A stretch of DNA of 64,000 bases, from contig JAQTTB010000001.1 of NCBI GenBank assembly GCA_028710985.1, forward strand, positions 231,397 to 295,396, given 5' to 3'. This stretch comes from Patescibacteria group bacterium (GTDB taxonomy: Bacteria > Patescibacteriota > Patescibacteriia > JAHJFT01). The translations under genes were made by a program, and so were the position numbers. Shown piece by piece: positions 5,771 through 27,452 of this stretch (its first letter is position 1; the number at the start of each line of letters is the position of its first letter). Under the pieces are notes generated by a model. It ran no database searches, was not told the DNA's origin, and was given only the letters and a program-made list of their open reading frames with translations.

Positions 5771-5806
5771 AAAAGTACGGGTCGCAGATCTGCGACCCGT
5801 ACTTTT
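5771..5806. terminator. bidirectional rho-independent terminator between convergent genes
   Basis: The sequence aaaaGTACGGGTCGCAGATCTGCGACCCGTACtttttt forms a perfect 13-bp stem flanked by an A-run and a T-run. Confidence 0.75.
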
Positions 5807-5812
5807 TTAATT

Positions 5813-7744
5813 TTACCAAAGTTTTTTCAATACAATGCCGCTGTAATAATATTTCACTATCTCATCCCAGCCACGTCCTGCATTTGCCATGCCAATAGCA
5901 TCGGTACAGGCCATGCCGACTCCATGGCCCCAAAGAGTGTTATTCGCCGCGGCGTCATATGGTGCCGGAACCGACTGCAGCCAGCCATAATCAATGCCAT
6001 TTGAACCGCCCCAGACTTCTTTGTAGCTCCGCGTCCGTCCGTCGGAACGCGAGTAATATGGGGTGAAAACCGGCTCATTGTCATAATGCACAATCATGCC
6101 GCGCGTCTGCTCCACCGCGTTCGCGAGCCGCGGCACGCGGATTTCGTTTCCGTATCCGCGGTAAACCTGATCATAGGTCGCATCAAGAATAAAATGCCCT
6201 TTTGCATGCTTGGTCGGATATGAATAATGAAAATATGCGTACGAACGCGCCGCAGTCACAAGCGCTTTCTGAAATTCAGTCGGCGAATAATTTGAAGTCT
6301 CAGCCAAACCCTTGAGATAATCCTCCATCGGAAGTTCGTTGATTACCCAGGGATAATTTGTTTCCGATACCCGAAGTTCAATCACTCCGCGAAAGCGATT
6401 GTCGTTATAGGCGCGGTTCCATGCCGGCCGCTGCTCAAGACTTGTAAGTTCAAAAATATTCTGTCCCGCCCCGGCCGGCTCAAAACGCAGATAGCACGCG
6501 CCGGTATAATTTTTCGCGTCTTTGAAAAAAGAATACTGATACGTTGATTTATTATAACTCGCGGTCACTACTACCCCGGCCGCGTATGTACCCAAATCCT
6601 GGCCACAGGATGTTTTAACCACAAACGATTTATCCGCCGTAAGCGTCAAATCTCCTTCGAGATCGTAAAGCCCGATGCGCATCAGCGATTCCTGCATCAA
6701 TCCAATTGTCGGCGCCGGACTAGTTCCTTCGGACGGAATATCTCCTGAATCGTCAGTTACGGTAATCGGAATATCTAATTCGCCGCCCGAAATGTCAGTT
6801 CCGTCAGTTTGCAATTTTAAATTCACCTGATAAACACCAGCCGACGCGGCCTTAAGAGTAAAGGTAAAAAATTGCAGTGCTCCGGGCGCAGTCGGAGACG
6901 CCGATTCAGCAAGCACGGACCGTGATTTCCAGGAAATATCATAAAAATTATCCAAACCGGTTGATGCGGCTGCCACATCCGGCAAAACTATTTTTGCACT
7001 TAACCAAGTCGCTCTGCCGTAATTCTTAAAACCAGCTGTAAATTTTATCGCCTCGCCGGCGCGCATTGTAATTTGCTGGTGGCTGCGCAGAAGAAGCTTT
7101 GCCTCATAGCCCGCCGATGCCGTTGGAATTGAGGCCGCGGTTGGAGTCGGAATCGATGTTGCCACCGGCGTTGATATCGGGGTCGTGCTTCCGGATGTAT
7201 CGATTAAAATCGATACGGTAAATTCGCCGCCCGGTATCCACAAAAGATCTTCCGCGGCTAAATAAAATTTTTCTTCATAAACTCCGGATGCGATATCCGC
7301 CGGCGCGCGCAATTTAAAAACAACGTATCCGACTTGGCCGGGCGCAACGCGACTGTCTTTCATCGCCGCCGGCTGTTCGCGCAGCTTCCAGGTCGTATCC
7401 TGGAAACGGCTGGTGCGGTATTTCGGCGACCAGGTATAAATTGAAATATAATTTTTTTCCGTGTTTGTCCAGGTATTGCTTCCCGTATTCTTGAAACCGA
7501 CGGTGAATTCTTTTGTTTCACCCGGCCGCATGGTGAGGGTTTTCGCGGTCTCAATCATCTTCACGGCTTCCCACTCTGCCGCTCGAGCCTCGTGCACTGC
7601 AAAAATTTGCGTTTCCACGAGTGAAAGCATCCAGGAAAACACGACCACGATTAAAAAAACCACGGAAACGCTTGCAAAAACGCTGCCCCAGCTTTCCGTG
7701 GGCTTTAAATCACAATTATCGATTTTTAAGCCGTAATTTGGCAT
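5813..7744 (-). CDS. SpoIID/LytB-domain protein with an N-terminal TM segment and repeated Ig-like domains
   Basis: The C-terminal ~200 aa carry SpoIID-like motifs (EDYLKGLAETS, AARSYA, DQVYRGYG, QTRGMIVHY, YYSRSDGRTRS). Upstream are a Thr/Pro-rich linker and duplicated beta-rich modules. Confidence 0.7.
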   Translation of the reverse strand: MPNYGLKIDNCDLKPTESWGSVFASVSVVFLIVVVFSWMLSLVETQIFAVHEARAAEWEAVKMIETAKTLTMRPGETKEFTVGFKNTGSNTWTNTEKNYISIYTWSPKYRTSRFQDTTWKLREQPAAMKDSRVAPGQVGYVVFKLRAPADIASGVYEEKFYLAAEDLLWIPGGEFTVSILIDTSGSTTPISTPVATSIPTPTAASIPTASAGYEAKLLLRSHQQITMRAGEAIKFTAGFKNYGRATWLSAKIVLPDVAAASTGLDNFYDISWKSRSVLAESASPTAPGALQFFTFTLKAASAGVYQVNLKLQTDGTDISGGELDIPITVTDDSGDIPSEGTSPAPTIGLMQESLMRIGLYDLEGDLTLTADKSFVVKTSCGQDLGTYAAGVVVTASYNKSTYQYSFFKDAKNYTGACYLRFEPAGAGQNIFELTSLEQRPAWNRAYNDNRFRGVIELRVSETNYPWVINELPMEDYLKGLAETSNYSPTEFQKALVTAARSYAYFHYSYPTKHAKGHFILDATYDQVYRGYGNEIRVPRLANAVEQTRGMIVHYDNEPVFTPYYSRSDGRTRSYKEVWGGSNGIDYGWLQSVPAPYDAAANNTLWGHGVGMACTDAIGMANAGRGWDEIVKYYYSGIVLKKLW

Positions 7745-7859
7745 TTTCTTTTTATTTTTTCGCCCGAAGACAATAAAACCGCCTTGTCCTTTCTTCCTAA
7801 GTTAGAACGTTGGCGGATAGTCTCATTTACACTATATATAATAACATAAAAAACGCCGT

Positions 7860-7888
7860 TTGTCAAGTCTGAAAAAAAAATATATACT
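7860..7888 (+). promoter_or_regulatory. putative sigma70-like promoter for the flippase / O-antigen ligase operon
   Basis: TTGTCA, a 17-nt spacer, then TATACT, about 10 nt upstream of the ATG at 7899. Confidence 0.4.
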
Positions 7889-7898
7889 TAATTAAAAT

Positions 7899-9341
7899 AT
7901 GTCACTCACTCGCGCCATTGCCTGGAATACGATTTCGCAGGTTTCCGGAAAAATTTTAAGCACCGTTGTCGGTCTTGTTACCGTTGCTTTGATGACCCGC
8001 TACCTTGGCCGGGATGGTTTTGGCGGCTACACAACCATCACTGCTTTTTTGCAGGTCTTTGGCATTTTGGTTGATTTCGGCTTGACGCTCATGACCGTGC
8101 AGATGATTTCCGAACACGGCGACGACCGAAAATTAAACGATAAAATATTAAGTAATATTTTTACATTGCGGCTTGTTTCCGCAATTTTATTTTTGGGCGC
8201 CGCGCCGCTCATCGCGCTTTTATTCCCCTATCCGGCAATGTTGAAGTGGGGCATCGCACTTACTACTTTTTCATTTTTATTCATATCCTTAAATCAACTT
8301 CTTACCGGCGTCTTCCAAAAGCATCTTCGCATGGAACGCGTGGTAATTTCCGAGATTATCGGCCGGCTAGTTCTCCTTAGCGGCGTCGCTGGCTTTATTT
8401 TTCTTAATCTCAACTTGCTTTGGATCATGCTTGCCGTGGTTCTCGGAAGCTTTGCGAATTTTGTCGCCAACTGGATTTTTGCCAAGCCGTTCGCCGCGAT
8501 CCGCCTTTCTTTTGAATGGCCCCTCTGGCGCGAAGCCCTGGCGCGCTCCTGGCCGATCGGCATCTCCATCGCTTTCAATCTTCTTTATTTTAAAGCCGAT
8601 ACCGTAATTTTGTCCGTATTCCGCTCTCAGGCCGAAGTCGGGCTTTACGGCGCGCCTTATCGCGTGCTTGAGGTACTCATTACTCTACCGTTTATGTTCA
8701 TCGGCGTGCTGATGCCGTTTTTTGCCCGCTGGTTTGCGGAAAAAAAGCTTGAAGATTTTACCCGCCTCGCCCAGCGCGGTTTTGATTTTCTCGCTATTAT
8801 CGCCTGGCCCATGGTTTTTGGCGCCCTGATCCTTGCGACTCCAATCATGGTATTTATCGCCGGCCCGGATTTTAGCGCCTCGGGTCCAATTCTCCAAATC
8901 TTGATTATCGCGACCGGTGTAATTTATCTTTCTGTTCTTTTTTCGCACCTCATTGTTGCGATCGGCTGCCAGCGCCGGATGATCTGGGGCTATGTCGCGA
9001 CCGCCGTGGCCGCTCTCATATTTTATCTGGTTTTTATTCCCCGCTTCGGCATGCCGGCCGCCGCCTGGGGCACAGTCGCCTCCGAAGCAATGATCGCGCT
9101 TCTCACCTTTATTGTTGTTTACCGCGCAATCCGATGGCGACCGGCGCTTGGCGTCTGCAACCGCGCCTTAGCCGCGAGCCTTCTCATGGCTGCCGCGATT
9201 TATTTTATTGAACCGTATTTCTCAAATCTTCTTGTTCTGATTACTGGTGGTGCCGCAATATATGCCGCAATACTCTATGCCCTTGGCGGCGTAAAAAAAG
9301 AATTGATCATGGAAATATTTAAAATCCCCCGCAACCCATGA
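7899..9341 (+). CDS. polysaccharide biosynthesis protein / Wzx-like MOP-family flippase
   Basis: A 480-aa polytopic membrane protein (~12-14 TM) with the typical oligosaccharide flippase layout. It overlaps the next gene by 4 bp. Confidence 0.7.
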   Translation: MSLTRAIAWNTISQVSGKILSTVVGLVTVALMTRYLGRDGFGGYTTITAFLQVFGILVDFGLTLMTVQMISEHGDDRKLNDKILSNIFTLRLVSAILFLGAAPLIALLFPYPAMLKWGIALTTFSFLFISLNQLLTGVFQKHLRMERVVISEIIGRLVLLSGVAGFIFLNLNLLWIMLAVVLGSFANFVANWIFAKPFAAIRLSFEWPLWREALARSWPIGISIAFNLLYFKADTVILSVFRSQAEVGLYGAPYRVLEVLITLPFMFIGVLMPFFARWFAEKKLEDFTRLAQRGFDFLAIIAWPMVFGALILATPIMVFIAGPDFSASGPILQILIIATGVIYLSVLFSHLIVAIGCQRRMIWGYVATAVAALIFYLVFIPRFGMPAAAWGTVASEAMIALLTFIVVYRAIRWRPALGVCNRALAASLLMAAAIYFIEPYFSNLLVLITGGAAIYAAILYALGGVKKELIMEIFKIPRNP

Positions 9342-10585
9342 ATTATTTTATTCTGATAATTTTCCTCGGCCTGTTCGGATACCTCGCCTGGCGCAACTTC
9401 CGTCTTGGACTTGCGCTTCTTGTTTTTCTTTTACCTACTTACTTCATCCGTTTCCAGATCGGCCCATTGCCAACCACGCTTCTTGAACTCTACTTTGTCG
9501 TCATTGCCTTGATCTGGATAACCAAAGAGCGCGGCCTCTCCTACCGCAATCAAAATTTGATAAAATGGCGGCTGCCGATTTTTCTTTTCTTAGCGGCCGC
9601 GACAATCGGCGTCATTGTTTCTCCGGATAAAACCGCCGCTCTCGGCATCTGGAAAGCATATTTTATTGAGCCCATATTATTTTTCTTGATTCTCATCTCC
9701 AGCCTCAAGACACGGGAAGACTGGAAATTAATCTTGAATGCCCTTCTTGCTTCGGCGGCCGCGATATCGCTTTTCGCGATTTTCCAGAAAGCAACCGGCG
9801 TCGCCATTCCCCCGGCCTGGCTCGCCGAGCGCCGCGTCACTTCGGTTTTCGGCTACCCGAACGCCGTCGGCTTGTACCTTGCGCCGCTCATTATCCTGGC
9901 TTTTTCTTTATTCTACGATTCGCTACGTGAGAAAAAATATATTTACTCAACATTATATTTTCTCTCGCTCGCCTCTTCCGCGCTTGCCATATTTTTTTCC
10001 AAAACCGAAGCCGGCTGGATTGCCGCGGCGGCCGGAATTTTTATTTTTTGCGTTTTCAAAAAAAATCTCCGCGTCCCGGCCATTGCCGCAGCCGCGATTC
10101 TGATCCTCTTGATCGGTCTCACGCCCGCGCTCCGAAGTCCGGTGATTGAAAAAATCACGCTTCAGGACTGGTCCGGCCATGTCCGCCTTGTCACCTGGAG
10201 TGAATCGCTTGAAATGCTGAAATCCAACGCGATCTTCGGCGCCGGACTCTCTGGCTATCCTTTAAAAATGATCAAATTCCATCAAGCCGAATATCTGGAA
10301 ATCTTCCAATATCCTCATAATATTGTTTTGAATTTCTGGTCCGAAACCGGCCCGGTTGGGCTCATTGCGTTTCTCTGGCTCATGGCGCTCGGCATTGTCG
10401 CGTCATTAAAAAAAGCGCGCCAGTCTAGCCTCGCGCTCGCCATGCTCTGCATATTTTTTGCCATCCTGATCCACGGTTTGGTTGACGTACCCTATTTTAA
10501 AAATGATTTATCAATGATGTTCTGGCTCTTTCTCGCAGTGGCCTTTATTTTAGAGAAAAAAAACGAGACGCTTTCGCGCCTCTAA
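9338..10585 (+). CDS. O-antigen ligase / polymerase (WaaL/Wzy_C-like) membrane protein
   Basis: A 415-aa multi-TM protein with a large periplasmic loop. It is translationally coupled to the flippase. Confidence 0.65.
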   Translation: MNYFILIIFLGLFGYLAWRNFRLGLALLVFLLPTYFIRFQIGPLPTTLLELYFVVIALIWITKERGLSYRNQNLIKWRLPIFLFLAAATIGVIVSPDKTAALGIWKAYFIEPILFFLILISSLKTREDWKLILNALLASAAAISLFAIFQKATGVAIPPAWLAERRVTSVFGYPNAVGLYLAPLIILAFSLFYDSLREKKYIYSTLYFLSLASSALAIFFSKTEAGWIAAAAGIFIFCVFKKNLRVPAIAAAAILILLIGLTPALRSPVIEKITLQDWSGHVRLVTWSESLEMLKSNAIFGAGLSGYPLKMIKFHQAEYLEIFQYPHNIVLNFWSETGPVGLIAFLWLMALGIVASLKKARQSSLALAMLCIFFAILIHGLVDVPYFKNDLSMMFWLFLAVAFILEKKNETLSRL

Positions 10586-10594
10586 GATGAGCTG

Positions 10595-10891
10595 TCAGAG
10601 CGGACTGTTTGGAAAAAAGCAAATCCACTCGTTCCAGATTTGCACATCCACCGCCGACCCGCCGCAGTCGCGGATCGCGCGGACAATGCCCGGCTTATAG
10701 GACTTAAGATTCTCCAGGAATTCTTCCTTGTTGTTCACCACGCCAAATTCATCGCAGTCCGGCTTGATGAAATGGAGAAAAGTCTCCCAGTCGCTCTCGG
10801 CGATGAACATAAGTGGAGTTATCCCTTTTCCCATCGCGTGTCCCATCGGATACTTCACGGCCAAAAGCCTCGCCCTCCTGGTTTCCGACAT
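10595..10891 (-). CDS. hypothetical protein
   Basis: The start is placed at MSETRR, which is preceded by GGAGGTG. The ORF track shows a longer 10595..10951 version. Confidence 0.4.
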   Translation of the reverse strand: MSETRRARLLAVKYPMGHAMGKGITPLMFIAESDWETFLHFIKPDCDEFGVVNNKEEFLENLKSYKPGIVRAIRDCGGSAVDVQIWNEWICFFPNSPL

Positions 10892-11019
10892 CTCGCCACC
10901 TCCTAAAAAAAGACCTGCTAAAAATTTAGCTGATTTCCCCGTCCTTGTCAAGCACCCCCAATCATGTTAAACTCTGTTTTAATCATTAAAAATTTATCAT
11001 TTAAAATTGAATTAAAATT

Positions 11020-11039
11020 CCTGCCTGCCGGCAGGCAGG
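11020..11039. repeat. 20-bp perfect palindrome CCTGCCTGCCGGCAGGCAGG (copy 1 of 4)
   Basis: Exact copies lie at 22348-22367 and 60981-61000, and a variant at 47295-47315. All are intergenic or at gene 3' ends. Confidence 0.85.
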
Positions 11040-11139: not shown

Positions 11140-11385
11140 ATGTTCACAACCTATATCTTAAAAAGTTTAAAAAATGGTAAACATTACATTGGGCATACTA
11201 ATGATATGCCGGCGCGATTAGAACGGCATAACCAGGGAAGGGTTAAGTCAACAAAAAATGGACGCCCCTGGGAATTAATTTATTCAGAAATATTTAAAAC
11301 AAAATCGGAAGCTAATCGTCGGGAATTTGAAATAAAGAGTTATAAAGGCGGGATATTATTTAAAAAACTTTTCAAACTCATTTAA
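11140..11385 (+). CDS. GIY-YIG nuclease family protein (UPF0213-like)
   Basis: YILKSLKNGKHYIGHTNDMPARLERHNQG...KSEANRREFEIKSYKGG carries the GIY-YIG core with conserved Arg/Glu/Asn residues. The ORF ends 1 nt before the tRNA-Ser. Confidence 0.85.
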   Translation: MFTTYILKSLKNGKHYIGHTNDMPARLERHNQGRVKSTKNGRPWELIYSEIFKTKSEANRREFEIKSYKGGILFKKLFKLI

Positions 11386-11386
11386 C

Positions 11387-11476
11387 GGAGGAGTGGCCGA
11401 GTGGTTGAAGGCGCCGCTCTCGAAAAGCGGTATGCCCGAAAGGGTATCGTGAGTTCAAATCTCACCTCCTCCGCCA
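11387..11476 (+). tRNA. tRNA-Ser (anticodon CGA), long variable arm, CCA encoded
   Basis: GGAGGAG-TG-GCC-GAGTGGTTGAA-GGC-G-CCGCT-CTCGAAA-AGCGG-(18-nt variable arm)-GTGAG-TTCAAAT-CTCAC-CTCCTCC-G-CCA. Confidence 0.9.
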
Positions 11477-11487
11477 ACCAAAATATT

Positions 11488-11931
11488 ATGCAAATTTCAA
11501 AAAATGATGTCCAATACAATATATTGAATGAAGAATTTTTGCTTGCACAGCGGCAAATGGACAAATACGACCAGCTTTCAACTACCATTAAAACCTGGGC
11601 AGTTACGCTGTGGGTAGCCGCGTCCGGCTGGGTGTTCCAAACGGAAACGAAACAGGTCGCCCTCTTAGGAGCGCTGCTAGTACTCATCTTCTGGTTCTTT
11701 GACAGCTACAATAAAGTTTATCGTACCAACTACAAGAAACGCCGTGACGAAATCCAAAATGGCTTACAAATTCTTTTTTTCGGCCGTCCCTTACCCACGG
11801 ATTTTTTATCCCCCAACCTTCCGATTCATGACGAAAAAAATGTCGTTCGAAGCATGTTTCTTCTACACGTTGGATTGCCTTACGCAATACTTATCATCAT
11901 TTCACTTCTGATCTATGCTAATTTCAATTAA
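11488..11931 (+). CDS. small hypothetical membrane protein (3 predicted TM helices)
   Basis: The start is placed at MQISKNDV, just after the tRNA. The ORF-track version (11401) overlaps the tRNA. It is bounded by copies of the tRNA-Ser 3' end. Confidence 0.45.
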   Translation: MQISKNDVQYNILNEEFLLAQRQMDKYDQLSTTIKTWAVTLWVAASGWVFQTETKQVALLGALLVLIFWFFDSYNKVYRTNYKKRRDEIQNGLQILFFGRPLPTDFLSPNLPIHDEKNVVRSMFLLHVGLPYAILIIISLLIYANFN

Positions 11932-11954
11932 AGACGACGGGGACAAAATCGCTT

Positions 11955-12033
11955 TCACCTCCTCCGCCAACCAAAATATTCAAAATTTTAAGTCGACGTA
12001 GCGGAGCGAAGTCGCTCTCACCTCCTCCGCCAA
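11955..12033 (+). repeat. two extra copies of the tRNA-Ser 3' end plus flank (att-like direct repeats)
   Basis: TCACCTCCTCCGCCAACCAAAATATT at 11955-11980 equals 11462-11487 (tRNA 3' end + CCA + 11 nt flank). A shorter copy, TCACCTCCTCCGCCAA, lies at 12018-12033. Confidence 0.75.
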
Positions 12034-12167
12034 ATTAACAAGTTAGAACCTAAGTAAAATAAGGGTATTTGGACAGCGAAAAGCCGATTTCGTCAGGAAG
12101 TCGGTTTTTTGTATTATTTTTTAACAGGGTGTACAATATAATCAATATATTTTAGTAAAGATAAATT

Positions 12168-12365
12168 ATGCCTACAATCAGTAAAAACATTCGCAAATTA
12201 AGAGAACAAAAAGGTATATCGCAAGATAGGCTTTCAAAACTGGCAAATATCTCTTTGAATACAATCGCAAAACTGGAACTCGACGAAACTCAAAATCCAA
12301 CCATTGAAACTTTGCAGAAAATTGCAAAAGCCCTAGATGTCAAAGTTGAGGATTTAATAAAATAA
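12168..12365 (+). CDS. XRE-family helix-turn-helix transcriptional regulator
   Basis: A 65-aa protein, IRKLREQKGISQDRLSKLANISLNTIAKLE, with a classic Cro/C1-type HTH. Confidence 0.75.
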   Translation: MPTISKNIRKLREQKGISQDRLSKLANISLNTIAKLELDETQNPTIETLQKIAKALDVKVEDLIK

Positions 12366-12369
12366 ATTT

Positions 12370-13488
12370 ATGGCCAGAGAAGCATCAATTAAAAATCTTA
12401 CAAATGCGAAAAGGGCAAAGAACGATGAGTTTTATACTCAGTACATCGATATTCAGAAAGAAATTGAAAAGTATTTAGATTACAACCCTAATACATTCCG
12501 AGCTAAGGTGGTGTATTGCAACTGCGACGATCCGTTCGAGAGCAATTTTTTTCGTTATTTTGTACTCAATTTCAACAAGCTTGGATTGCAACAGCTAATT
12601 ACAACGAGCTACAAACCATCGCCCGTCGCCAACACGCAACTGGGATTATTCGGTGATGACAAAACACTTGCAAAAACAAAAGGCCGTTCAAAGGTAACTG
12701 CCAATAAATTTATTATCAATGAAGTGAAAGATATAGACGGCGATGGAGAGTTCAATCTAAAAGATGTTGCCAAACAGTTAAAGGCAAACAAAAACAACGA
12801 ATGGATGCCCCTTGAGAAAGATGGTGACTTCAGAAGTCCCGAATGCATAGCATTACTGGAACAGTCTGATATCGCGGTAACCAATCCGCCGTTTAGTTTG
12901 TTTCGTGAGTATGTTAAACAACTTTTTGATTACCAAAAAAAGTTTTTGATTATTGGCAATATTAATTGCATAACTTACAAGGAGGTATTTCAAAAAATTA
13001 AAAATAATGAAATATGGCTTGGTAATGGAATGGGAAGATGGATTTCTGGTTTTATTGTACCTGAATCCTACAACTTGTACGGAACGGAGGCTCGGATAGA
13101 TGAAGATGGAAATAGAATTGTTGCCACCAATAATTGTTTGTGGCTTACCAATCTTGACCATGGTCGCCGTCACCAACCGTTGCCACTTATGACAATGAAA
13201 GAAAATTTGAAATACAGCAGACACAAAGAAATCAAAGGCAAAAAAGCGTATGAAAAATACGATAATTATGATGCGATAGAAGTATCTTTTACCGATGCGA
13301 TTCCAAGCGATTATAAAGGTGCAATGGGTGTGCCAATAAGTTTTTTGGATAAGTACAATCCTGAACAATTTGAGATATTAGGAATGGACGATCACAGGAT
13401 GCAATATCCTAATTGGAGAGGCAGAGGCCCTGACTTGAATGGAAAGCCCGCTTATAGAAGAGTTATCATCAGGCATAAGAAAAAATAA
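12370..13488 (+). CDS. N6-adenine DNA methyltransferase (NPPF motif IV; tentatively EcoRI-methylase-like family)
   Basis: DIAVTNPPF is the (D/N)PP(F/Y) catalytic motif. The N-terminal NDEFYTQ and [15 protein letters not shown] resemble the M.EcoRI family, but I am recalling this from memory and have not verified it. Confidence 0.75.
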
Positions 13489-13489
13489 T

Positions 13490-14659
13490 ATGAATACAAC
13501 TTTAAAAACCAATATCACTGTTAAAGAAATCTGCGACGGCTTTGTCTATAACGAACTTGAAGGCAAGGGTTTGTTTGGCTTGTCTGGCAAGCTCACTATT
13601 CAGCCGGAATATCAGCGAAATTATATTTATGCATCCGATGGCGGCAAAAGAGAGATGGCTGTAATTGAATCAGTCCTAAAAGAATATCCAATAGGATTGA
13701 TTTATTTCAATAAAGTTTCTACCGAAAACCTAGAAGTTTTAGACGGACAGCAACGCATCACAAGTCTCGGACGATTTATCACCGACAAATTTGCCATCAA
13801 GGACGAAAATGGCATGGAGCAATATTTTGGCGGTATGGCAAAAGACAAGCAAACCAAAATTTTGGAAACGAAACTTCTCATTTACGAGTGCGAGGGCACA
13901 GAAAGCCAGATAAAAGAATGGTTTAGGACCATAAATATTGCCGGCGTTCCGCTCAATAATCAAGAATTACTCAATGCCGTGTATTCTGGCCCATTCGTGA
14001 CTAGGGCTAAAGAGGAATTCAGTAATAGCCAAAACGCCAATATTCAAAAATGGAGTGCATATGTATCGGGTAGTGCAAACAGGCAGGAATTTTTGGAATG
14101 TGCTCTTGATTGGGTAAGCAGAGGCAATATCGGCGACTACATGAGCAAGCATCGCAAAGACAAAAACATCGATGTGTTGAAAAAATATTTCAACACAGTC
14201 ATTCATTGGGTATCTAGCGTATTTACCGATGTAGAAAGCGAAATGCGCGGGCTTAAATGGGGACGATTGTACGAGGAATATCACAAAGAGAAATATAATC
14301 CAACCAAAGTATCCGCTGAGGTGCGTGAGCTCTATGGTGACTTTTTTGTTAAAGATAAAAAGGGAATTTTTGAGTACATTTTAGGTGGTAAAAACGATAC
14401 AAAATTGCTTAATATTCACATTTTTGACGAACCAACTAAAAGAGCTATTTACGCAAAACAAACTAAGGAAGCTGAAACCAAAGAGAAATCAAACTGTCCA
14501 CATTGCGCTATTGGGCACGACGCTAATAAGGAAAAGATTTGGAGTTTCGGCGAAATGGAAGCGGATCATGTATCAGCGTGGAGCAAGAGTGGCGCGACTT
14601 CAGCGAAGAATTGTGAGATGTTGTGCAAAACCCACAATCGAGCGAAGGGAAATCGATAA
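13490..14659 (+). CDS. DUF262 (ParB-like, DGQQR) N-terminal domain fused to a C-terminal HNH (DUF1524-like) nuclease; GmrSD/SspE-like architecture
   Basis: [17 protein letters not shown] is the DUF262 signature. The C-terminus (CPHCAIGHD...[32 protein letters not shown]) is an HNH motif. The start is set at MNTTLK, 2 nt after the MTase stop. Confidence 0.8.
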
Positions 14660-14665
14660 AATAAT

Positions 14666-14860
14666 ATGGCAAATCAAACAGACAATAAAATAATGAGTGT
14701 GCCAGAGCAAATATTCGACCAGTTTCTAACGGAATTGGGAGAACAAAAAATACCGGAAGAAGTTATCGCTCGCTTAAGAAAAACTCTTGTAGACAATGGG
14801 CAGATCTCGGTTGATGCTCTCAAACAAGCATTGTTTTACAGTGATAGCACAGATGTATGA
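14666..14860 (+). CDS. small hypothetical protein (64 aa), translationally coupled to the downstream ATPase
   Basis: Its stop overlaps the ATG of the next gene (ATGA at 14857-14860). It is acidic with no known domain. Confidence 0.4.
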   Translation: MANQTDNKIMSVPEQIFDQFLTELGEQKIPEEVIARLRKTLVDNGQISVDALKQALFYSDSTDV

Positions 14861-17331
14861 TTAAGATTGACACAATAAAAATTGAAGAGTTTCGTGGCAT
14901 ACGCAACTTGACACTGGAGTTTAACGGAAAAAATTACGCTGTATGCGGACCAAACGGAACAGGTAAAAGTGGAGTGGTCGATGCTCTAGAGTTTGCTCTT
15001 ACAGGGAATATATCGCGCTTGTCTGGCGAAGGTATGGGTAATGTTTCCGTCAAAGAACACGCACCACATGTCGATAGTAAAAATAATCCCGAAAAAGCTC
15101 GCATAAACATTACATTTAAAATACCAACACTTGAAAATAAGCAAGTGACGCTCGCGAGGACAGTCAAAAATTCTACAACGCCAAGTATAAATCCATCATC
15201 ACCGGAAATACTTGAGATACTTTCACAATTTGATGGGCATCCTGAGTTTGTATTATCTCGACGCGAGATTATTCGGTATGTCATTTCAAAACCGGGCGAC
15301 AGATCAGCGGAAGTTCAGGCACTATTGCGTCTCGATAAAATTGGCGATTTACGGAGCAGTCTACTGACCATATCAAACACATACAGCAAAGAGTCAAAGG
15401 ATTCAAAAAAAGTTCAGGATCAAGCAAGCGAAAGTTTAGCACAAGGTTTGGAAATAACTGATTTGGTTAAAGCAAAGATTTTAGAAGCGGTAAATACAAG
15501 ACGCACTGTTCTCGGCTTAACGTCACTTACGGATTTAACAGCCACGACAGCTTTAAATGATGGATTAGAAACAAGTGTAAAATCTCCGGCTGTGCCGAAA
15601 GTGAATAAGGTTTCGGCAACAGCTGATCTAAAGACTTGGCGAGAGGTATCGCAAAAAATGACGGCTGAAAGTGTGCGGTCGGAGTGTTCAGAGTTGAAAG
15701 ATCAATTAACTGTTTTGAGTAGTAATCCTATTGTTACTGAGAGTGTAACGCGCGAGAAATTTTTACGCTCGGCGATAGATTTTGTAACGGAAGAAGCTTG
15801 TCCCGTTTGTGATACAAAATGGGACATATCTACATTGCAGGGTATTATCCGCTCGAAACTTGAAGGATTTGAAGAAATCACAAAGATGCGCGCTAGCCTT
15901 GAAAATCGGTTGGAACCAATTATAACTCTTGTCGACTCGCTTGATAACGCAACCGCTTTAGCTGAAAAATTAACGAAAGTCTTGACAACTGAACATACGG
16001 CAGGTCTTGCAGCTTATCGAGCAACATTATCGTCATACCGCAAGGCATTGAAAGATTTTTTGCCATTGACGGAAGCTATACCAGCAATTGTAAATATCAC
16101 AGAAATTCCTGCTGACGTAACATCTGCAATTGAAGCGATAGAAAAAGCTGTCGCAATTATTCCAGAGCCAACACAACAAGATGCGGCACGAGATTTTATT
16201 GTGCGAGCACAAGATCGCCTTGAGGCATACAGAAAAGTAGCTCGCGAAGCAGATAAGGCAAAGCAGCGGGCTGATTTATCAAAGAAGGTTTACGACACAT
16301 ATGTAGATATCAGCACCAAAGCGTTGGAGGGTGTTTATAAAGATGTAGAAGGCGAGTTCTCTAAACTGTATCGCTCGGTGAACGGCGAAGACGAGAATAG
16401 TTTTACAGCAAAGCTGGTTCCGTCTATTGGCAAATTAGGTTTTGATGTTGATTTTTATGGACGAGGGCATTTCCCTCCTGGCGCGTATCACAGTGAGGGA
16501 CACCAAGACGCGATGGGGCTTTGTTTGTATCTAGCACTAATGAGAAAACTCCAAGGCACTAATTTCAGATTTGCCGTACTCGACGATGTGCTCATGTCTG
16601 TTGATTCGAATCACCGCCGAGAAGTGTGTAATCTTCTTAAGCAACAATTTCAAGACACTCAATTTATCCTTACAACGCATGATGAAGTATGGTTAAAACA
16701 AATGACGACTGTTGGGCTTATCGCATCAGGAAACGCAACACGCTTTAGCAATTGGACTCCCGACCATGGTCCTGCGGAATGGAAAACGCGCGACGTGTGG
16801 ACTGAAATAGACACTGCTTTGAATGCAAACGATGTTCAATCAGCGGCCAGTCGCCTTCGGTATTATCTGGAGTATGTTTTTAGAGAAGTATGTGACAGCT
16901 TGCGAGCACAAGTTGAGTTTAAGGGTGATGGACGCTATGGGCTTGGGGATACCCTAGCTCCGGCCGTGGCACGCTTTCGTAAGCTTATGGTTGAAGGTAA
17001 AGAGGTTGCGGAATCACGGAGCCAAACTGATGTTGCAAAAGCTCTCCAATTGCAAGAAAAGAACCTTGCAGATTCTTTAGTCGCGACCAACGCTGAACAA
17101 TGGCAGGTTAATCCGGCTATTCACTATAACGAATGGGCGAATCTTTCGGTTAATGATTTTAATCCCGTGGTTGCTACTTTTCGTAATTTGGTGCAAAAAT
17201 TCTTTTGTGAAAAGCCAGAGTGTAGTAGTTTTGTATATTTAACTACGACGCCACCAAAAACGCCGGATGCAGTTCGCTGTAATTGTGGATTGATAAATAT
17301 AAACCTAAAGAAACCGGCGCAGAAAGATTAA
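14857..17331 (+). CDS. SMC/Rad50-like ABC ATPase (AAA_15/AAA_23-type head, long coiled coil, putative CxxC zinc hook)
   Basis: The N-terminal Walker A is GPNGTGKSGVVDALEFAL. The C-terminal Walker B and D-loop are FAVLDDVLMSVD and ILTTHDE. About 450 aa of predicted coiled coil lie between them, carrying CPVCDTKW near the middle. A C-terminal Cys cluster (CEKPECSS...VRCNCG) follows. Confidence 0.8.
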   Translation: MIKIDTIKIEEFRGIRNLTLEFNGKNYAVCGPNGTGKSGVVDALEFALTGNISRLSGEGMGNVSVKEHAPHVDSKNNPEKARINITFKIPTLENKQVTLARTVKNSTTPSINPSSPEILEILSQFDGHPEFVLSRREIIRYVISKPGDRSAEVQALLRLDKIGDLRSSLLTISNTYSKESKDSKKVQDQASESLAQGLEITDLVKAKILEAVNTRRTVLGLTSLTDLTATTALNDGLETSVKSPAVPKVNKVSATADLKTWREVSQKMTAESVRSECSELKDQLTVLSSNPIVTESVTREKFLRSAIDFVTEEACPVCDTKWDISTLQGIIRSKLEGFEEITKMRASLENRLEPIITLVDSLDNATALAEKLTKVLTTEHTAGLAAYRATLSSYRKALKDFLPLTEAIPAIVNITEIPADVTSAIEAIEKAVAIIPEPTQQDAARDFIVRAQDRLEAYRKVAREADKAKQRADLSKKVYDTYVDISTKALEGVYKDVEGEFSKLYRSVNGEDENSFTAKLVPSIGKLGFDVDFYGRGHFPPGAYHSEGHQDAMGLCLYLALMRKLQGTNFRFAVLDDVLMSVDSNHRREVCNLLKQQFQDTQFILTTHDEVWLKQMTTVGLIASGNATRFSNWTPDHGPAEWKTRDVWTEIDTALNANDVQSAASRLRYYLEYVFREVCDSLRAQVEFKGDGRYGLGDTLAPAVARFRKLMVEGKEVAESRSQTDVAKALQLQEKNLADSLVATNAEQWQVNPAIHYNEWANLSVNDFNPVVATFRNLVQKFFCEKPECSSFVYLTTTPPKTPDAVRCNCGLININLKKPAQKD

Positions 17332-17441
17332 ATCTGCTCGGATAAACCTAGCAATTGTTGTTTACTAAAAAGAGAGCCGCCCGCGTCAGCGGACGGGCTT
17401 GTATGCGCGCTAATAGGGATTTTATATAGAATAATCCACCT

Positions 17442-17612
17442 CATCTTTGCCTTTGACCGACTTAGGTTTAGGCGTCTCAAACCACTCCGGATGAACTTCG
17501 TAGATAGCCCTTAATTCCTGTATACTTTTATCAAGATCCTCGAATTTGAGCCATTTTCTTGGTTCAAAGTTCCGGAGATCGTGCCCGCCAAATTATAAAA
17601 AACTAATTACCA
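17442..17612 (-). pseudogene. start-less ORF remnant (...RNFEPRKWLKFEDLDKSIQELRAIYEVHPEWFETPKPKSVKGKDEVDYSI*), a possible gene fragment at the island boundary
   Basis: The open reading frame on the minus strand has no start codon and runs into the 5' region of the 17616 gene. It is too short for the ORF track. Confidence 0.3.
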
Positions 17613-17615: not shown

Positions 17616-18101
17616 ATGTCAGATCAAGAAATTAAATCAACCGGCTGTTGCGAGCCGTTCAATCCCGAACCGTGGCATGAAAAAGAAATTGTCTGGAAAG
17701 ATAAAATTTTTGTCAAAGACTATGTTACGAGTTTTTTGCACATTCCGCTCAATATGGGGAAAAAAATCATAAAAAATATAGCGCTGATTGAAAAAGCCGG
17801 CGCTAAATCCCCGTATCAGCTCATGCTCTGCGACGAAAAATCTCTTTGGGGTTCTGACATTTATATTGATGTTGCGAAAGATGTCCCCGGCGCGCAGATG
17901 GCAAAAATTTCCGGCACTTTCCTAACGAAAGTTTTTGAAGGTCCGTATCAAAACGCCGGCAAATGGGCGGTTGAAATGAATGAATATGTGAAAAACAAAG
18001 ACAAAGAAATTAAAAAATTATATTTTTCTTACACCACCTGCCCAAAGTGCGCCAAGGCTTACGGCAAAAACTACGTGGTGCTCTTCGCGCAGATTGACTA
18101 A
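17616..18101 (+). CDS. hypothetical protein with N-terminal CC and C-terminal CPKC Cys pairs
   Basis: A 161-aa ORF with no confident family assignment. Confidence 0.5.
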   Translation: MSDQEIKSTGCCEPFNPEPWHEKEIVWKDKIFVKDYVTSFLHIPLNMGKKIIKNIALIEKAGAKSPYQLMLCDEKSLWGSDIYIDVAKDVPGAQMAKISGTFLTKVFEGPYQNAGKWAVEMNEYVKNKDKEIKKLYFSYTTCPKCAKAYGKNYVVLFAQID

Positions 18102-18182
18102 AGAACATACAGGACAGCATGCAAATGCAGGAATTTATTCGTCTTTTATCGGACGATTTTTTATTTGCGCTAAACCACGCCC

Positions 18183-18220
18183 TTGACAATATGTAAGGTA
18201 TACATTACAATAAGTAATGT
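18183..18220 (+). promoter_or_regulatory. sigma70-type promoter with an overlapping palindromic operator (ACATTAC-N5-GTAATGT)
   Basis: TTGACA, a 17-nt spacer, then TACAAT. The inverted repeat acattacAATAAgtaatgt overlaps the -10 and sits upstream of the DUF2178-XRE pair. Confidence 0.5.
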
Positions 18221-18238
18221 AAACTTAACTTAATCAAT

Positions 18239-18640
18239 ATGAACTACAAACAATTCAAAAGAATGCGCCTATTAACCGCCTCGTTTGTTTCGGCCACGGT
18301 GGCGATTGCGGTTGTTTATAATAACATTGTCTTGGCCCTGGCCGGAGTCGTAATCGGCCTGCTTTTTCTCCTCCTGGTCAGAAAAAAAACAAATGCGGTT
18401 ATAATTGACGAGAGAATTCAAAAAATTGGCGACCGCGCGGCTCGCCTTACTTACACGACTTTAACCCTCGCCACTGCTTTTCTTTCTTTGATTTTCATCG
18501 TGATCGGCCGGCGGATCGGCGAGGCAAATTACGAAACCCTGGGAATAATATTAAGTTATATTACCCTGTTCAGCCTTGCCCTTTATTCGCTTTCATACAA
18601 ATATTTCAGCAAAAAATATGGAGAAACAGACGACGAATAA
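18239..18640 (+). CDS. DUF2178-like small membrane protein (4 TM), usual partner of an XRE regulator
   Basis: A 133-aa protein with four hydrophobic helices, followed immediately by an HTH gene. This is a conserved two-gene arrangement. Confidence 0.55.
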   Translation: MNYKQFKRMRLLTASFVSATVAIAVVYNNIVLALAGVVIGLLFLLLVRKKTNAVIIDERIQKIGDRAARLTYTTLTLATAFLSLIFIVIGRRIGEANYETLGIILSYITLFSLALYSLSYKYFSKKYGETDDE

Positions 18641-18818
18641 AATTAAAGTTTTCCGAGCAATGCGCGAAATGACTCAGGAACAACTGGCTGATAAAGTTGG
18701 CGTTACTCGTCAAACCATAATCGCGATTGAAAAAAATAAATACGTTCCGTCCCTGGAGCTGGCATTTAAAATCGCCGGAGTTTTTGGCGAGACGATTGAG
18801 AACGTCTTTCAACGTTAA
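18618..18818 (+). CDS. XRE-family HTH transcriptional regulator
   Basis: MEKQTTNKIKVFRAMREMTQEQLADKVGVTRQTIIAIEKNKYVPSLELAFKIAGVF. The start is moved to the internal ATG. Confidence 0.8.
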   Translation: MEKQTTNKIKVFRAMREMTQEQLADKVGVTRQTIIAIEKNKYVPSLELAFKIAGVFGETIENVFQR

Positions 18819-18884
18819 GTATTCTTACCTCTATTGAAAAATTTTTTGCCCTCTGATAACATCCCCGTAGAGAAGGAGGATGCC

Positions 18885-19643
18885 ATGACAACGTCCGCAA
18901 ATCTTGTTCTTATCCCCGGCATCGACACCTATACCCTGCTTGACCTTTTAAAGTTAGCCGCACGTCATAAGGGCCTCGAGCTTTGGTGGAACGCTTCAAA
19001 AACCTTTTTCAAGCCGATCAAAAAATATACGCTCGATGACCGGCTCCTCGATATTCTTGAATCGCGCAACATCAAGCGAGAGCCCCGCCCCGATCTTTCC
19101 TTCACCTTGGTCGACCAGAACCCCCAGGAGATAACTCCCGGACACCGCCCGAGCAACTACTGGAGCTTTAAGCTACTCAAGGGCAGTAACTACAACTATG
19201 ATCTCCTGATCAGTCTGAGCGTCCGCTACGAAGTCAGCACCAAAAAACAGGGCATTATCCTTTTGCCCCTAGCGATTGGAACTGTCCTTTCTCCGGCAGA
19301 CCACTTGCCAAACCTCCGCATGTTCCAAGCGCTGGTCGAAAGCGACAGGGACGCACCAGCCATCGCTAAAGAAATCGCCGGAAACGCGAGCGGCCTAATC
19401 GTCACCTGGAGCGATCTTGGTCTCGGGGGCATTCGTCGGCTCACTGAGCTCTTCCACGAGTTCACGAATCGGAACGTCGCTATCGAAAACCTCAGTCGGC
19501 AGGATGGTGTTTTCAGCCCCACCCCGCACCCCTACCAACAACAACTTACGGATGAACTGTTTATTACCGAACTGGCGCAACTCAGAATTCTTAAAGCATG
19601 GCGGAATCAACTCGAAGCCTATCGCAACAGCCACGCCCCATAA
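18885..19643 (+). CDS. hypothetical protein
   Basis: GAAGGAGG precedes the ATG at 18885 (MTTSANLVLIPG...). There is no known domain. Confidence 0.45.
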   Translation: MTTSANLVLIPGIDTYTLLDLLKLAARHKGLELWWNASKTFFKPIKKYTLDDRLLDILESRNIKREPRPDLSFTLVDQNPQEITPGHRPSNYWSFKLLKGSNYNYDLLISLSVRYEVSTKKQGIILLPLAIGTVLSPADHLPNLRMFQALVESDRDAPAIAKEIAGNASGLIVTWSDLGLGGIRRLTELFHEFTNRNVAIENLSRQDGVFSPTPHPYQQQLTDELFITELAQLRILKAWRNQLEAYRNSHAP

Positions 19644-19743
19644 GACACGCTTGCTCAAGGGAGTTCGTGAAAACGACTCCTTTTTTTTATGATATAATCA
19701 CTGCAGAGCTTTTTCAGCCATATTAATAATAATTAATTAACGC

Positions 19744-20880
19744 ATGAAAATTCGCCCTGCACATCTCATTATTGGTTCAATAGTTTTGTTTATATTGGAT
19801 TTTTTAACCTTAGCCAATGACACTATTTTTCCAAACCGTGAACCGAAAGGAATTGCAACAGTTATCGTCTTTGGCTGCGCATTAACTTTTATCGCGGGGA
19901 CCGCGTGGGCAATATTTAGGCTGATCTTTAAAGGGAAAAGGTCGCGCAAGGCAACCACCGCGGCCGCTCCGCCAGCGATCGCGCCGGAAAAAAGCCGATT
20001 CTCTTTAACCACATTGGAAATTGTATTTAATCGAATTTTTGCGGTCTTGTTAATCCTCTCCGCCCCGTTGTTGTTATTTAATCCTTTCACTGTCCCGACG
20101 GTGGTGATCTTTGTCGTGTTTGCCTTGTTTCTTTTTTTCGCTAAAAGATACCATCCGGTAATCAACGCCATCTTCGCGCTAATCGCCCTCGGCGTATATT
20201 TTATTCCCTTGCCGATCGATTGGGGATTTTTTCTCGGCCTAAAAGAATGGCGGATGGGCGGTTTTGTTTTTCACCCAATCATTATCTTTTTTTACCTTTC
20301 CCCATTAATTTTTATTTCTCTTTCTGCCAGAAATATTTTAGGAAATATCCTGTCATTTTTTAAGCCAAACACACGCTGGCGTAATCTTTTATTTTTCCTT
20401 TCTCTAATAACCGCGATAATAGTAATCCTGGCCTATCCGTTGCTAAGCAGTATTAAATTACGTGAACGAGCAATGGAAGATGATGATGGTAGTAGCCAAT
20501 TGTCCTATGCCCTGACAAAACAAGAACTTAAAATAGAACCGGGAAAGAGCGGCTCTAGTAGTAGTGCTCTCGCCCGGCGGTATTACACGGCCCGTTTTGA
20601 TCCGGCCACGAAAAAATATATCTATCGCTTGAATCTTGCGGATCCGCTTTCCGCGTCTATTGAATTCACGGCGGTTGAAACCGACGGTGAAAAAATTAAT
20701 TTTACAACCGACTCTCGAATACAGTGTTTGAATTGCCAGAAAGATACAAGCGATCCTTACGGCTTGGTTTTCCCCGCCGGCAAAAATATTGATTTCACCT
20801 TGACTAGCGACAAGCTAATTATGGCGATAAAATTCACTGAGCCCGGAGACAAGGTGGCTAAGTTTATTTTTTGGAAATAA
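19744..20880 (+). CDS. hypothetical polytopic membrane protein with a C-terminal soluble domain
   Basis: A 378-aa protein with about 8 hydrophobic segments followed by a ~130-aa hydrophilic domain. Confidence 0.5.
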   Translation: MKIRPAHLIIGSIVLFILDFLTLANDTIFPNREPKGIATVIVFGCALTFIAGTAWAIFRLIFKGKRSRKATTAAAPPAIAPEKSRFSLTTLEIVFNRIFAVLLILSAPLLLFNPFTVPTVVIFVVFALFLFFAKRYHPVINAIFALIALGVYFIPLPIDWGFFLGLKEWRMGGFVFHPIIIFFYLSPLIFISLSARNILGNILSFFKPNTRWRNLLFFLSLITAIIVILAYPLLSSIKLRERAMEDDDGSSQLSYALTKQELKIEPGKSGSSSSALARRYYTARFDPATKKYIYRLNLADPLSASIEFTAVETDGEKINFTTDSRIQCLNCQKDTSDPYGLVFPAGKNIDFTLTSDKLIMAIKFTEPGDKVAKFIFWK

Positions 20881-21012
20881 ATTTTCCGCATGTGCCATAT
20901 TCAAAAAAATAATACCTGACAAGGCGCTTTGATATTAGATAAAATAAGCACCAAATAGCGGGCCTCCCCCGCTTTTTTAGTTATACGCCAATGATGGTAT
21001 AATAATATCGTT

Positions 21013-22347: not shown

Positions 22348-22440
22348 CCTGCCTGCCGGCAGGCAGGTTCCATTATTCATGATTCCTGATTCTCGTGTTG
22401 CTGGAATCATGTTTTTTTATTATAATAGTAGTGTATTTTT

Positions 22441-25576: not shown

Positions 25577-25578
25577 AT

Positions 25579-26214: not shown

Positions 26215-26215
26215 T

Positions 26216-26602: not shown

Positions 26603-26631
26603 ATTTAATAATTAATTACTTAATAAAAAGT

Positions 26632-27015: not shown

Positions 27016-27022
27016 ATAAATT

Positions 27023-27424: not shown

Positions 27425-27452
27425 AAATCACATAATCCTTAATTAATAAATT

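Follow-up and report, generated by a model that had tools for sequence, protein, structure and literature searches.

The locus described here surrounds a tRNA-Ser(CGA) gene in a 64,000-nucleotide stretch (the window, 64 kb) of contig JAQTTB010000001.1 from the Patescibacteria group bacterium assembly GCA_028710985.1, in which the 3' end of the tRNA gene occurs three times. According to ARAGORN, the intact gene, with an encoded CCA, spans positions 11387-11476 on the forward strand, and it scores 60.7 bits against the Rfam tRNA family. The 26-mer TCACCTCCTCCGCCAACCAAAATATT, which begins inside this gene, recurs exactly once downstream (26/26 identical; chance expectation 0). It comprises 4 nt of the 3' strand of the T stem, the 7-nt acceptor strand, the discriminator G, the CCA, and 11 nt of flank, so that the extent of the repeat corresponds to the last 15 nt of the tRNA plus 11 nt beyond it. 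A 16-nt core, TCACCTCCTCCGCCAA, is found for a third time at 12018-12033 (chance expectation 0 to 0.05), and direct reading extends this third copy, TCTCACCTCCTCCGCCAA, to 18 nt matching the tRNA. All three copies are fragments of the tRNA 3' end in direct orientation, as shown in Table 1.

The start-to-start spacings of the copies are 493 nt and then 63 nt according to the repeat search, and the gaps measure 467 nt from copy 1 to copy 2 and 35 nt from copy 2 to the 18-nt copy 3. A preliminary description of this DNA, made from the sequence alone, had already reported the threefold presence of the tRNA-Ser 3' end, which is borne out by the 26-, 26-, and 18-nt copies and by the ARAGORN and Rfam assignments. 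It gave the distances as 470 bp and 40 bp, of which the spacing pattern holds and the exact figures do not. It also called for a search for a fourth copy and considered that similar 26-mers elsewhere would speak against its interpretation. Within the window, on both strands, we detected no further copy of TCACCTCCTCCGCCAA with up to two mismatches, no other match of at least 11 nt to the last 39 nt of the tRNA region, and no fourth copy by using 10- to 12-mers of the tRNA tail.

The copies delimit two units. Unit 1 (11462-11954, 493 bp) contains a single open reading frame (ORF) and is hence an exact single-gene cassette, and unit 2 (11955-12017, 63 bp) contains no gene. The ORF of unit 1 starts 11 nt after the CCA, with no terminator in between, and its stop codon lies 23 nt before copy 2. 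The first terminator-like site detected 3' of the tRNA on the forward strand by the pattern scan lies beyond copy 3, from which it is separated by a 42-nt stretch that we call the trailer.

TABLE 1 Features of the tRNA-Ser(CGA) locus and its surroundings, in window coordinates
Feature	Position	Strand	Remarks
GIY-YIG nuclease, 90 aa	11113-11385	+	Ends 1 nt before the tRNA; Pfam E 1e-16; GC 0.34
Copy 1 of 26-nt repeat	11462-11487	+	3' end of intact tRNA-Ser plus flank
Unit 1 gene, 147-aa small membrane protein	11488-11931	+	GC 0.41; PADLOC PDC-M50A, E 1.3e-9
Left arm of copy 2, TAAAGACGACGGGGACAAAATCGCTT	11929-11954	+	Homologous to the arm before copy 3 (alignment)
Copy 2 of 26-nt repeat	11955-11980	+	26/26 versus copy 1
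Unit 2 spacer	11981-12015	+	Similar to unit 1 at its start; ends as the left arm of copy 3
Copy 3, TCTCACCTCCTCCGCCAA	12016-12033	+	18-nt tRNA-Ser 3' fragment
Trailer	12034-12075	+	Homologous to DNA directly after intact tRNA-Ser(CGA)/(TGA) in other contigs (blastn, motif scan)
Rho-independent terminator-like hairpin	12076-12112	+	Pattern scan; fold -25 kcal/mol, z -5.3
Type II restriction-modification operon: helix-turn-helix (HTH) controller, EcoRI-type methyltransferase, DUF262(GmrSD_N)+HNH endonuclease	12168-14659	+	Pfam, PADLOC
64-aa ORF and 824-aa SMC/LmuB-like ATPase	14666-17331	+	Pfam SMC_N, AAA_23; PADLOC LmuB, E 1e-26
Small conserved ORF core	17425-17592	-	80% nt identity to locus L182; no ATG/GTG/TTG start here
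Rest of variable region: Bact_hydrolase, DUF2178+HTH pair, 269-aa ORF, weakly SLATT-like membrane protein, double LOG/SLOG	17616-22347	+	Pfam
NTP_transferase, first syntenic core gene downstream, right edge of variable region	22441-23310	+	tblastn synteny, 22 related loci; Pfam

The product of the unit 1 gene has two strong hydrophobic segments and a weaker one, in agreement with the earlier statement that the first interval encodes only a small membrane protein. It is identical to MDD4995068.1 (PHW53_01195), encoded on a 744,538-bp contig of a metagenome-assembled genome (MAG), and its similarity to DUF2270 is weak but consistent across five members of the family. We found nothing on PDC-M50 in the literature. 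The protein has 33 homologues in Patescibacteria, with 44-69% identity, whose genes are mostly not near tRNAs. In L203, L206, L208, and L213 (L numbers designate related or metagenome loci), no tRNA lies nearby and the DNA homology stops at the ends of the ORF, and none of the five homologue contexts that we read is flanked by copies of a tRNA end. In L211 (4159-4942), L212, L215 (1-591), and L216, a homologue with 63-66% identity lies 110-250 nt downstream of tRNA-Ser(GGA), and in L211 a degenerate partial T-arm copy is located between the two. Two lineages thus show an association of this family with a tRNA-Ser.

Units 1 and 2 are homologous on both sides of the shared core. The arms preceding copies 2 and 3, the only two instances of this motif, align with ~80% identity over ~27 nt with one 4-nt indel, and after the shared 26-mer unit 2 continues with ~10 nt resembling the start of unit 1. 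Judging from this homology, they are of one kind, unit 1 being loaded and unit 2 empty. According to our calculation, a 26-nt stretch would stay identical under ~20% uniform neutral divergence with a probability of ~0.003. Since the arms are ~20% diverged but the core is identical at 26/26 positions, the core has either been under constraint or conversion, or else each unit was acquired on its own with an identical core. The locus does not have the features of a simple slippage duplication, as the units differ in length (493 versus 63 nt) and in conservation (core 100% versus arms ~80%) and no array is reported by Tandem Repeats Finder (TRF). The spacer of unit 2 shows no significant RNA structure (z -1.3) and no Rfam family, and at permissive Rfam thresholds the inserts return only tRNAs.

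When we inspected 80 Patescibacteria genomes, collected via relatives of the upstream Wzy_C gene with 34-58% identity, we identified tRNA-Ser(CGA) in 44 of the 80 loci, mostly just downstream of the Wzy_C gene. The next conserved genes in these relatives encode an NTP-transferase and a solute-binding protein and correspond to positions 22441-24701 of the window. The gap between the tRNA and the NTP-transferase gene measures 102 nt in L046, 203 nt in L068, 1.2-6.1 kb in ten other loci, and 10,965 nt here, and none of the window genes within the 11-kb gap has a homologue at the site in the 80 related loci. Given the variation of the gap and the lack of its genes at this place in relatives, the site is a true hot spot of insertion. 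A comparison of gene content had been proposed in the preliminary description; run on these related loci, it identifies the gap downstream of tRNA-Ser as the variable part.

A metagenome scan with the last 18 nt of the tRNA yielded 120 loci. Intact tRNA-Ser genes are joined directly to a homologue of the trailer that follows copy 3 in L088 and L182 (Ser-CGA) and in L104 and L176 (Ser-TGA). The identity of the trailer to L088, L104, and L182 is 86-91% by blastn, and its consensus of ~40 nt reads CCA followed by GATGTCCAAGTTTGAACCTAAGCAAAATAAGGG, with L071 starting alike. Because the trailer found after copy 3 directly follows intact tRNA-Ser in these four other contigs, 11477-12015 is inserted DNA, and copy 3 with its flank is, as read from these alignments, the older tRNA/trailer junction. 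Empty sites are thus represented by L088, L182, L104, L176, L046, and L068, which are distant relatives and not strains of the same species.

The trailer occurs behind different upstream genes and behind two tRNA-Ser isoacceptors, and in each of five genomes it is followed by a different restriction-modification (R-M) or defense system: the EcoRI-type R-M system in the window, an MvaI/BcnI endonuclease in L088, an SNF2 helicase with DUF2779 in L182, a PLD-like nuclease with an M.Eco57I-type methylase in L104, and an N6/N4 methylase with a MutH-like endonuclease and a C5 methylase in L176. L046 and L068, the near-empty sites, carry other trailers. Since their trailers differ, the conserved trailer may not be native sequence but may form the left end of an island family whose cargo is exchangeable.

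Large serine recombinases (Resolvase + Recombinase + Zn_ribbon_recom) are encoded at the homologous hot spot in four relatives. They abut tRNA-Ser(CGA) in L031 (~11270-12898, minus strand) and L054 (~11140-12963, minus strand), and they lie 1.7-3.2 kb from it in L061 (13591-15045, minus strand) and L062 (14611-15942, minus strand). L061 and L062 share the post-tRNA flank ACAAYATTTAGTATCGA and carry small cargo, which in L061 includes a defense-like AAA_21/AAA_15 ATPase. No tyrosine integrase was detected at this hot spot in the 80 related genomes, where the Pfam tally of 120 gap ORFs covers only families with at least two members. The sole tyrosine recombinase in the window is an Xer-type gene at 43232-44197, 31 kb away. 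The repeats had been described as a tyrosine-integrase signature, a reading that neither this distant Xer-type gene nor the serine recombinases of the relatives support.

We explain the three copies as scars left at the junctions of small insertions at the 3' end of the tRNA, where the incoming DNA brought its own copy of that end and unit 2 arose by local reshaping; we give this explanation about an even chance of being correct. The units would have been inserted behind the body of tRNA-Ser(CGA), separating it from what had been its 3' end, trailer, and terminator. At least one of them would have entered by recombination within the 16 nt common to all copies (T-stem/acceptor/CCA), and, as the incoming DNA carried its own tRNA-end copy, the tRNA would have been kept intact, as is the case with integrative elements that target tRNAs. 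The enzyme may have acted in trans or may since have been lost. Judging from the large serine recombinases at the same hot spot in L031, L054, L061, and L062, it may have been an enzyme of this class and not a tyrosine integrase. Unit 1 is foreign DNA with exactly one gene, which is placed such that it can be transcribed by read-through from the tRNA promoter to the terminator-like hairpin.

The persistence length of DNA far exceeds the size of a ~60-bp circle. Since its 63 bp lie below this length, unit 2 cannot have integrated as a circle and must be a deletion or duplication product; it would have arisen either from local duplication accompanied by loss of the ORF or from a second, related unit that eroded. 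Of the at least two stacked insertions proposed earlier, two units of inserted DNA can therefore be retained, but not the 63-bp unit as an integration of its own. The notion that these are decayed elements is not followed here, as 493 and 63 bp are too small for ordinary decayed islands and unit 1 is an exact one-gene cassette. The junction expected for an excised circle of unit 1 is ...TCGCTT-TCACCTCCTCCGCCA-ACCAAAATATTATG, and that of the empty site is the tRNA joined to AATTAACAAGTTAG. The locus would then represent a small-scale, integrase-less variant of a known phenomenon, and such scars appear unusually common in this lineage.

Two groups of described elements resemble the arrangement that we propose. 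The ssrA islands of Dehalococcoides are tandem elements with 20-bp 3' repeats, inserted at the T-loop, with a CcrB-like serine recombinase (PMC3146451), and their integrase-less members have been interpreted as cis-mobilizable elements (PMC3146451; review PMC5704250). The present locus shares with them the tandem units, the ~20-bp 3'-end repeats (26, 26, and 18 nt here, starting at the 3' strand of the T stem), a motif before each repeat (two instances here), and units devoid of a recombination module (PMC3146451), and their integrase class, large serine recombinase, is that found at the tRNA-Ser hot spot in the four relatives named above. Unlike the present locus, the ssrA islands are kilobase-scale and mostly carry the recombinase by attL; here the units are 10-100x smaller, the target is a tRNA and not a transfer-messenger RNA, and no large serine recombinase beside an attL was found in the window. 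The second group consists of cis-mobilizable elements (CIMEs) and the accretion arrays formed by ICEs (integrative and conjugative elements) and IMEs (integrative and mobilizable elements), in which att-type repeats flank units that lack their own recombination genes and stand in tandem at one site (PMC5704250). The units described here likewise have att-like flanks and neither recombination nor transfer genes. A CIME is by definition paired with a cognate ICE or IME of its own species; no such partner is known for the present units, whose mobility would be hypothetical.

Several results weigh against insertion scars as the explanation. Between 11.1 and 22.4 kb, no recombinase or transposase of any class was detected by Pfam, motif, and phmmer screens, which at the same time bears out the earlier statement that no integrase is encoded inside. 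In L061 and L062, we found no distal tRNA-fragment repeat. No second genome was found in which a gene is sandwiched between copies of a tRNA end, and both the repeat plus flank and the conserved trailer are absent from the viral contigs searched, with no free or alternative form. The identity of the 26-nt copies runs 11 nt past the tRNA, and comparable repeats run ~20 nt past tRNA-His in the window and reach at least 65 nt in L126; since these repeats include local flank, they look more like a local duplication than like the core site of a recombinase. Moreover, three of the four tRNA genes in the window carry 3' partial duplications, namely, tRNA-Ser, tRNA-His, and tRNA-Arg(TCT), one of which, that of tRNA-Arg(TCT), is a plain 55-nt tandem array, so that a process independent of recombinases could account for all of them.

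Such a process would start with breakage or replication-template switching at structured positions of the tRNA gene (anticodon loop, T-loop, 3' end), where repair inserts filler or foreign DNA and duplicates the target; slippage would then expand the long, variable target duplications into arrays, and the tRNA-Ser locus would be one instance of a genome-wide phenomenon. We consider it somewhat unlikely as the origin of the three copies. It is favored by the two other cases in the window. At tRNA-Arg(TCT) (42621-42694, minus strand), two extra copies of the 36-nt 3' half, from the anticodon loop to the 3' end, each follow an identical 19-nt spacer, GAGGCACTGGCGGGCAGGT, and the resulting array (42512-42658; TRF period 55, 2.7 copies, 98%) has the features of a slippage duplication. 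A 34-nt copy of the 5' half of the same gene lies upstream, between tRNA-Arg(CCT) and tRNA-Arg(TCT), at ~42714-42747. At tRNA-His (41551-41624, minus strand), a 40-nt direct repeat (41338-41377 and 41531-41570, 39/40 identical, spacing 193 nt) extends from the T-loop through the 3' end and into the flank. Its 153-nt insert (41378-41530) is strongly structured (z -4.7) and matches no Rfam family, and the T arm recurs within it as a perfect inverted copy of 12 nt, GGGAATTGAACC.

The same tendency is seen beyond the window. A copy of the acceptor 3' strand within 1 kb downstream accompanies 22 of 283 tRNA genes in the related loci (~8%), and this argues for repair as well, with the reservation that some of the 22 are neighboring tRNA genes with similar ends, such as in L166. 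Partial duplications of the tRNA-Ser 3' end at 31-200 nt were identified in L003, L014, L018, L039, L077, L106, L186 (three copies), and L194, and tRNA-Gly, -Lys, -Glu, and -Arg genes in the related loci show the same kind of partial duplication. The preliminary description had placed the footprint upstream of the defense island; the repeats are real, but they are not specific to the island, since other tRNAs show similar duplications. Repair would also suit the variable length of the repeats, from 12 to at least 65 nt across cases and often including flank, and the inverted T-arm matches of at least 10 nt, which occur downstream of 13/290 tRNAs and upstream of 0/290. Duplications of the 3' end are also more common where a GIY-YIG gene lies upstream (4/10 versus 18/273 without one; Fisher p = 0.004), an association drawn from few, non-independent loci. 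In the literature, we found nothing on partial tRNA duplications in the Candidate Phyla Radiation.

Insertion with long target duplication in the absence of mobility genes has been documented for R-M genes (PMC2853133). The tRNA-Ser locus resembles this class in its direct repeats of the local target, which vary in length (16-40 nt here, at least 65 nt in L126), in the lack of a transposase or integrase, and in being R-M rich (PMC2853133). Unlike in that class, where repeats of >30 bp flank R-M genes (PMC2853133), here they flank a membrane-protein gene and an empty unit, and the repeat is always the 3' part of a tRNA. Further points are difficult to reconcile with repair alone: the left ends of the repeats fall at canonical sublocations of integrase crossover (anticodon loop, T-loop), the homologous arms on both sides of the tRNA-Ser units are unexplained by random filler, and a perfectly conserved 26-nt core stands beside arms with a difference of ~20%.

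Among the cases of partial duplication, a recurrent layout of the insert was observed, in which a hairpin, often with a CTGC loop, is followed by an inverted T-loop/T-stem copy of the tRNA concerned and then by the direct 3' partial copy. It was seen in L106 (~8496-8630), L109, L088, L105, L149, L186, L039, and L126, where the stems differ and the pairing is kept, and an identical 22-nt hairpin, GCAAGCAAACTGCTTTGCTTGC, is present in L106 (Ser) and L109 (Glu). The tRNA-Ser units of the window have neither a CTGC-type hairpin nor an inverted T-arm copy. An IS200-like transposase was considered as the cause of the duplication in L003 and rejected, as its ends are hairpins of its own and it is located past the partial tRNA copy. 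In the window, two GIY-YIG genes end just upstream of tRNAs, the one listed in Table 1 before tRNA-Ser and another (~42840-43070, minus strand) before tRNA-Arg(CCT), and the same arrangement of a GIY-YIG gene followed by a tRNA is present in L039, L027, L194, and L104. Homologues of the GIY-YIG gene before tRNA-Ser occupy the same position in L039 and L027 and are absent from most other Wzy_C/tRNA-Ser loci.

The preliminary description instead read the locus as stacked, possibly decayed insertions of tyrosine-integrase elements; spelled out, two full-size islands would have integrated serially and decayed to 478 and 35 bp between att sites, which we regard as distinctly unlikely. Streamlined genomes have a strong deletion bias, which would favor such decay. 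Islands inserted into tRNA genes by tyrosine integrases (tDNA islands of the Islander type) span ~9-120 kb and leave tRNA fragments as attR, and direct repeats of a tRNA 3' end are their standard signature (PMC4383910, PMC9897764). Like them, the present locus has an intact tRNA, a displaced 3' fragment in direct orientation, a repeat that runs from the T-arm to the 3' end, and several copies, and an empty site could be identified. In other metagenome contigs (L120, L138, L145, and L087), tyrosine integrases are indeed encoded beside this tRNA end in partial or complete copy, and L120, L138, and L145 present classical junctions of a tyrosine integrase and a partial tRNA with the same 18-mer. 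Unlike in tDNA islands, no integrase is present here, the intervals are 493 and 63 bp with one single gene, and the displaced fragments delimit only these two units; the defense island is not enclosed, and a kilobase-scale island with a distal fragment was not found. Unit 1 is also no random remnant, as it consists of a complete gene with 11 nt before its start and 23 nt after its stop, and two independent deletions would each have had to spare both att sites and the homologous arms. The absence of tyrosine integrases from the hot spot in the 80 related genomes and the recurrence of the same tiny-interval pattern at two other tRNAs of the window further argue against decayed islands.

We also considered an integron-like platform, in which tRNA 3'-end copies would serve to load and stack promoterless one-gene cassettes before the terminator by means of a recombinase encoded elsewhere; we hold this to be very unlikely. 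Integron arrays consist of promoterless single-ORF cassettes with folded attC ends, which are inserted at attI by IntI and expressed from an upstream promoter. The likeness lies in a tight promoterless one-ORF unit that ends in a conserved arm plus core and thus in a site-like end, in stacking by a fixed site, and in a unit that looks empty. Expression would be possible from the tRNA promoter, given that the first terminator-like site comes after copy 3, and the same gene family lies downstream of tRNA-Ser(GGA) in L211, L212, and L215. Unlike in integrons, the site is a tRNA end, only a single loaded cassette was found, and the gene family is not near a tRNA in most lineages. Neither IntI nor any other integron-type integrase, attI, the promoter Pc, or an attC palindrome was detected, and upstream lie the GIY-YIG gene and the tRNA. 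A folded attC-like site at arm plus core was examined and rejected, since its folds are not better than those of shuffled sequences (z 0.03 and -1.3), and so was the tight tRNA-to-ORF spacing as a special feature, since ORFs starting a few nucleotides after a tRNA are common in these compact genomes.

A bolder proposal is that Patescibacteria possess a previously undescribed route of DNA addition, based on mini-units of 50-500 bp that each end in a tRNA 3' copy and are stacked between tRNA and terminator. Some of these units may be noncoding and structured (a CTGC-loop hairpin plus an inverted T arm) and some may carry one gene, here PDC-M50A-like, and the enzyme in trans may be a serine recombinase, one of the upstream GIY-YIG nucleases, or another. 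The tRNA genes would then act, in the manner of integrons, as platforms for loading and expression; we regard this proposal as highly doubtful.

Most proteins of the window had no recorded counterpart in an independent assembly. Two independent Logan short-read assemblies from this strain match positions 5777-11028 and 21252-33310 of the window with 100% identity; they break at 11028 and 21252, and neither spans the repeat region, so that they speak neither for nor against the triplication. An assembly artifact, suggested by these breaks and by the source being a MAG, is extremely unlikely, since each of the three copies differs from the others in its left and right context, two of them enclose a complete, conserved ORF, and analogous structures are present in many independent assemblies.

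Whether left by insertion or by repair, the copies occur in a lineage with 0.7-Mb genomes and almost no recognizable mobile-element genes, in which tRNA 3' ends nevertheless gather insertions. If the small units are mobile, they would constitute a minimal gene-delivery system for an uncultivated phylum, and if they are scars of repair, they would indicate an unusual fragility of tRNA genes in these organisms. Partial tRNA copies near their parent gene can also mislead tRNA annotation and island-finding software. The triplication itself is unsurprising; what is worth a systematic look are the mini-duplications, the inserts with hairpin and inverted T arm, and the trailer that precedes interchangeable defense systems.

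The defense island starts beyond copy 3 and the terminator-like hairpin. Its low-GC genes begin at 12168, after the 42-nt trailer and the hairpin, as expected from the earlier report of AT-rich genes downstream of the last copy, and GC is 0.28-0.43 over most of 11.1-20.9 kb, versus 0.50 for the whole window. In the R-M operon, PADLOC matches were obtained for MTase_II (E 2e-115) and REase_II (E 4e-81), the latter corresponding to the DUF262+HNH endonuclease. For the kilobase-scale island (12.1-22.3 kb), we could detect no distal tRNA-fragment repeat in the window, either with the 16-mer at up to two mismatches or with matches of at least 11 nt. The repeats had been presented as a footprint upstream of the defense island, and they do not bound it: the rule that tRNA fragments mark island borders fails here, as the repeats enclose 0.5 kb and not the 10-kb island. 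The latter is a separate cargo in the 11-kb variable region between the tRNA and the NTP-transferase gene, and it is unbracketed by the repeats.

Three observations concern the variable region and its surroundings. A 20-nt GC-rich palindrome, CCTGCCTGCCGGCAGGCAGG, is present at 11020-11039, 22348-22367, 47295-47314, and 60981-61000 (one copy with 1 mismatch). Two of its copies bracket the region from GIY-YIG to LOG, and one short-read assembly of the same strain ends inside 11020-11039. The palindrome was rejected as an island boundary, since four copies across the window denote a dispersed element, either similar to repetitive extragenic palindromes or a terminator.

The second concerns the small conserved ORF core on the minus strand (GG[DH]D.RNFEP.KWLKFEDIDKSIQELRAIYKVHPEWFETPKPKS.KGKNEVDYSI), which is represented by 92 protein clusters with 53-91% aa identity, has no Pfam, PHROG, or Rfam match, and is absent from viral contigs. 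That it might be an RNA gene was considered and rejected, as no structure or family was found and the codon-position differences (11/5/23) indicate coding. Its sources include Daviesbacteria, Ryanbacteria, and Magasanikbacteria, with unrelated N termini and mostly on short contigs. It is also present at L182 (11165-11341) and L044 (13196-13408), and in the window and L182 it marks the distal end of the defense cargo.

Finally, at 19744-22347, a 378-aa membrane protein with a weak match to SLATT_5 (E 8e-4, below the curated cutoff) adjoins the double LOG/SLOG protein, whose gene has a host-like GC of 0.55. The pairing of SLATT-like and LOG/SLOG proteins is typical of nucleotide-signaling conflict systems, and the defense-like region may reach 22.3 kb.

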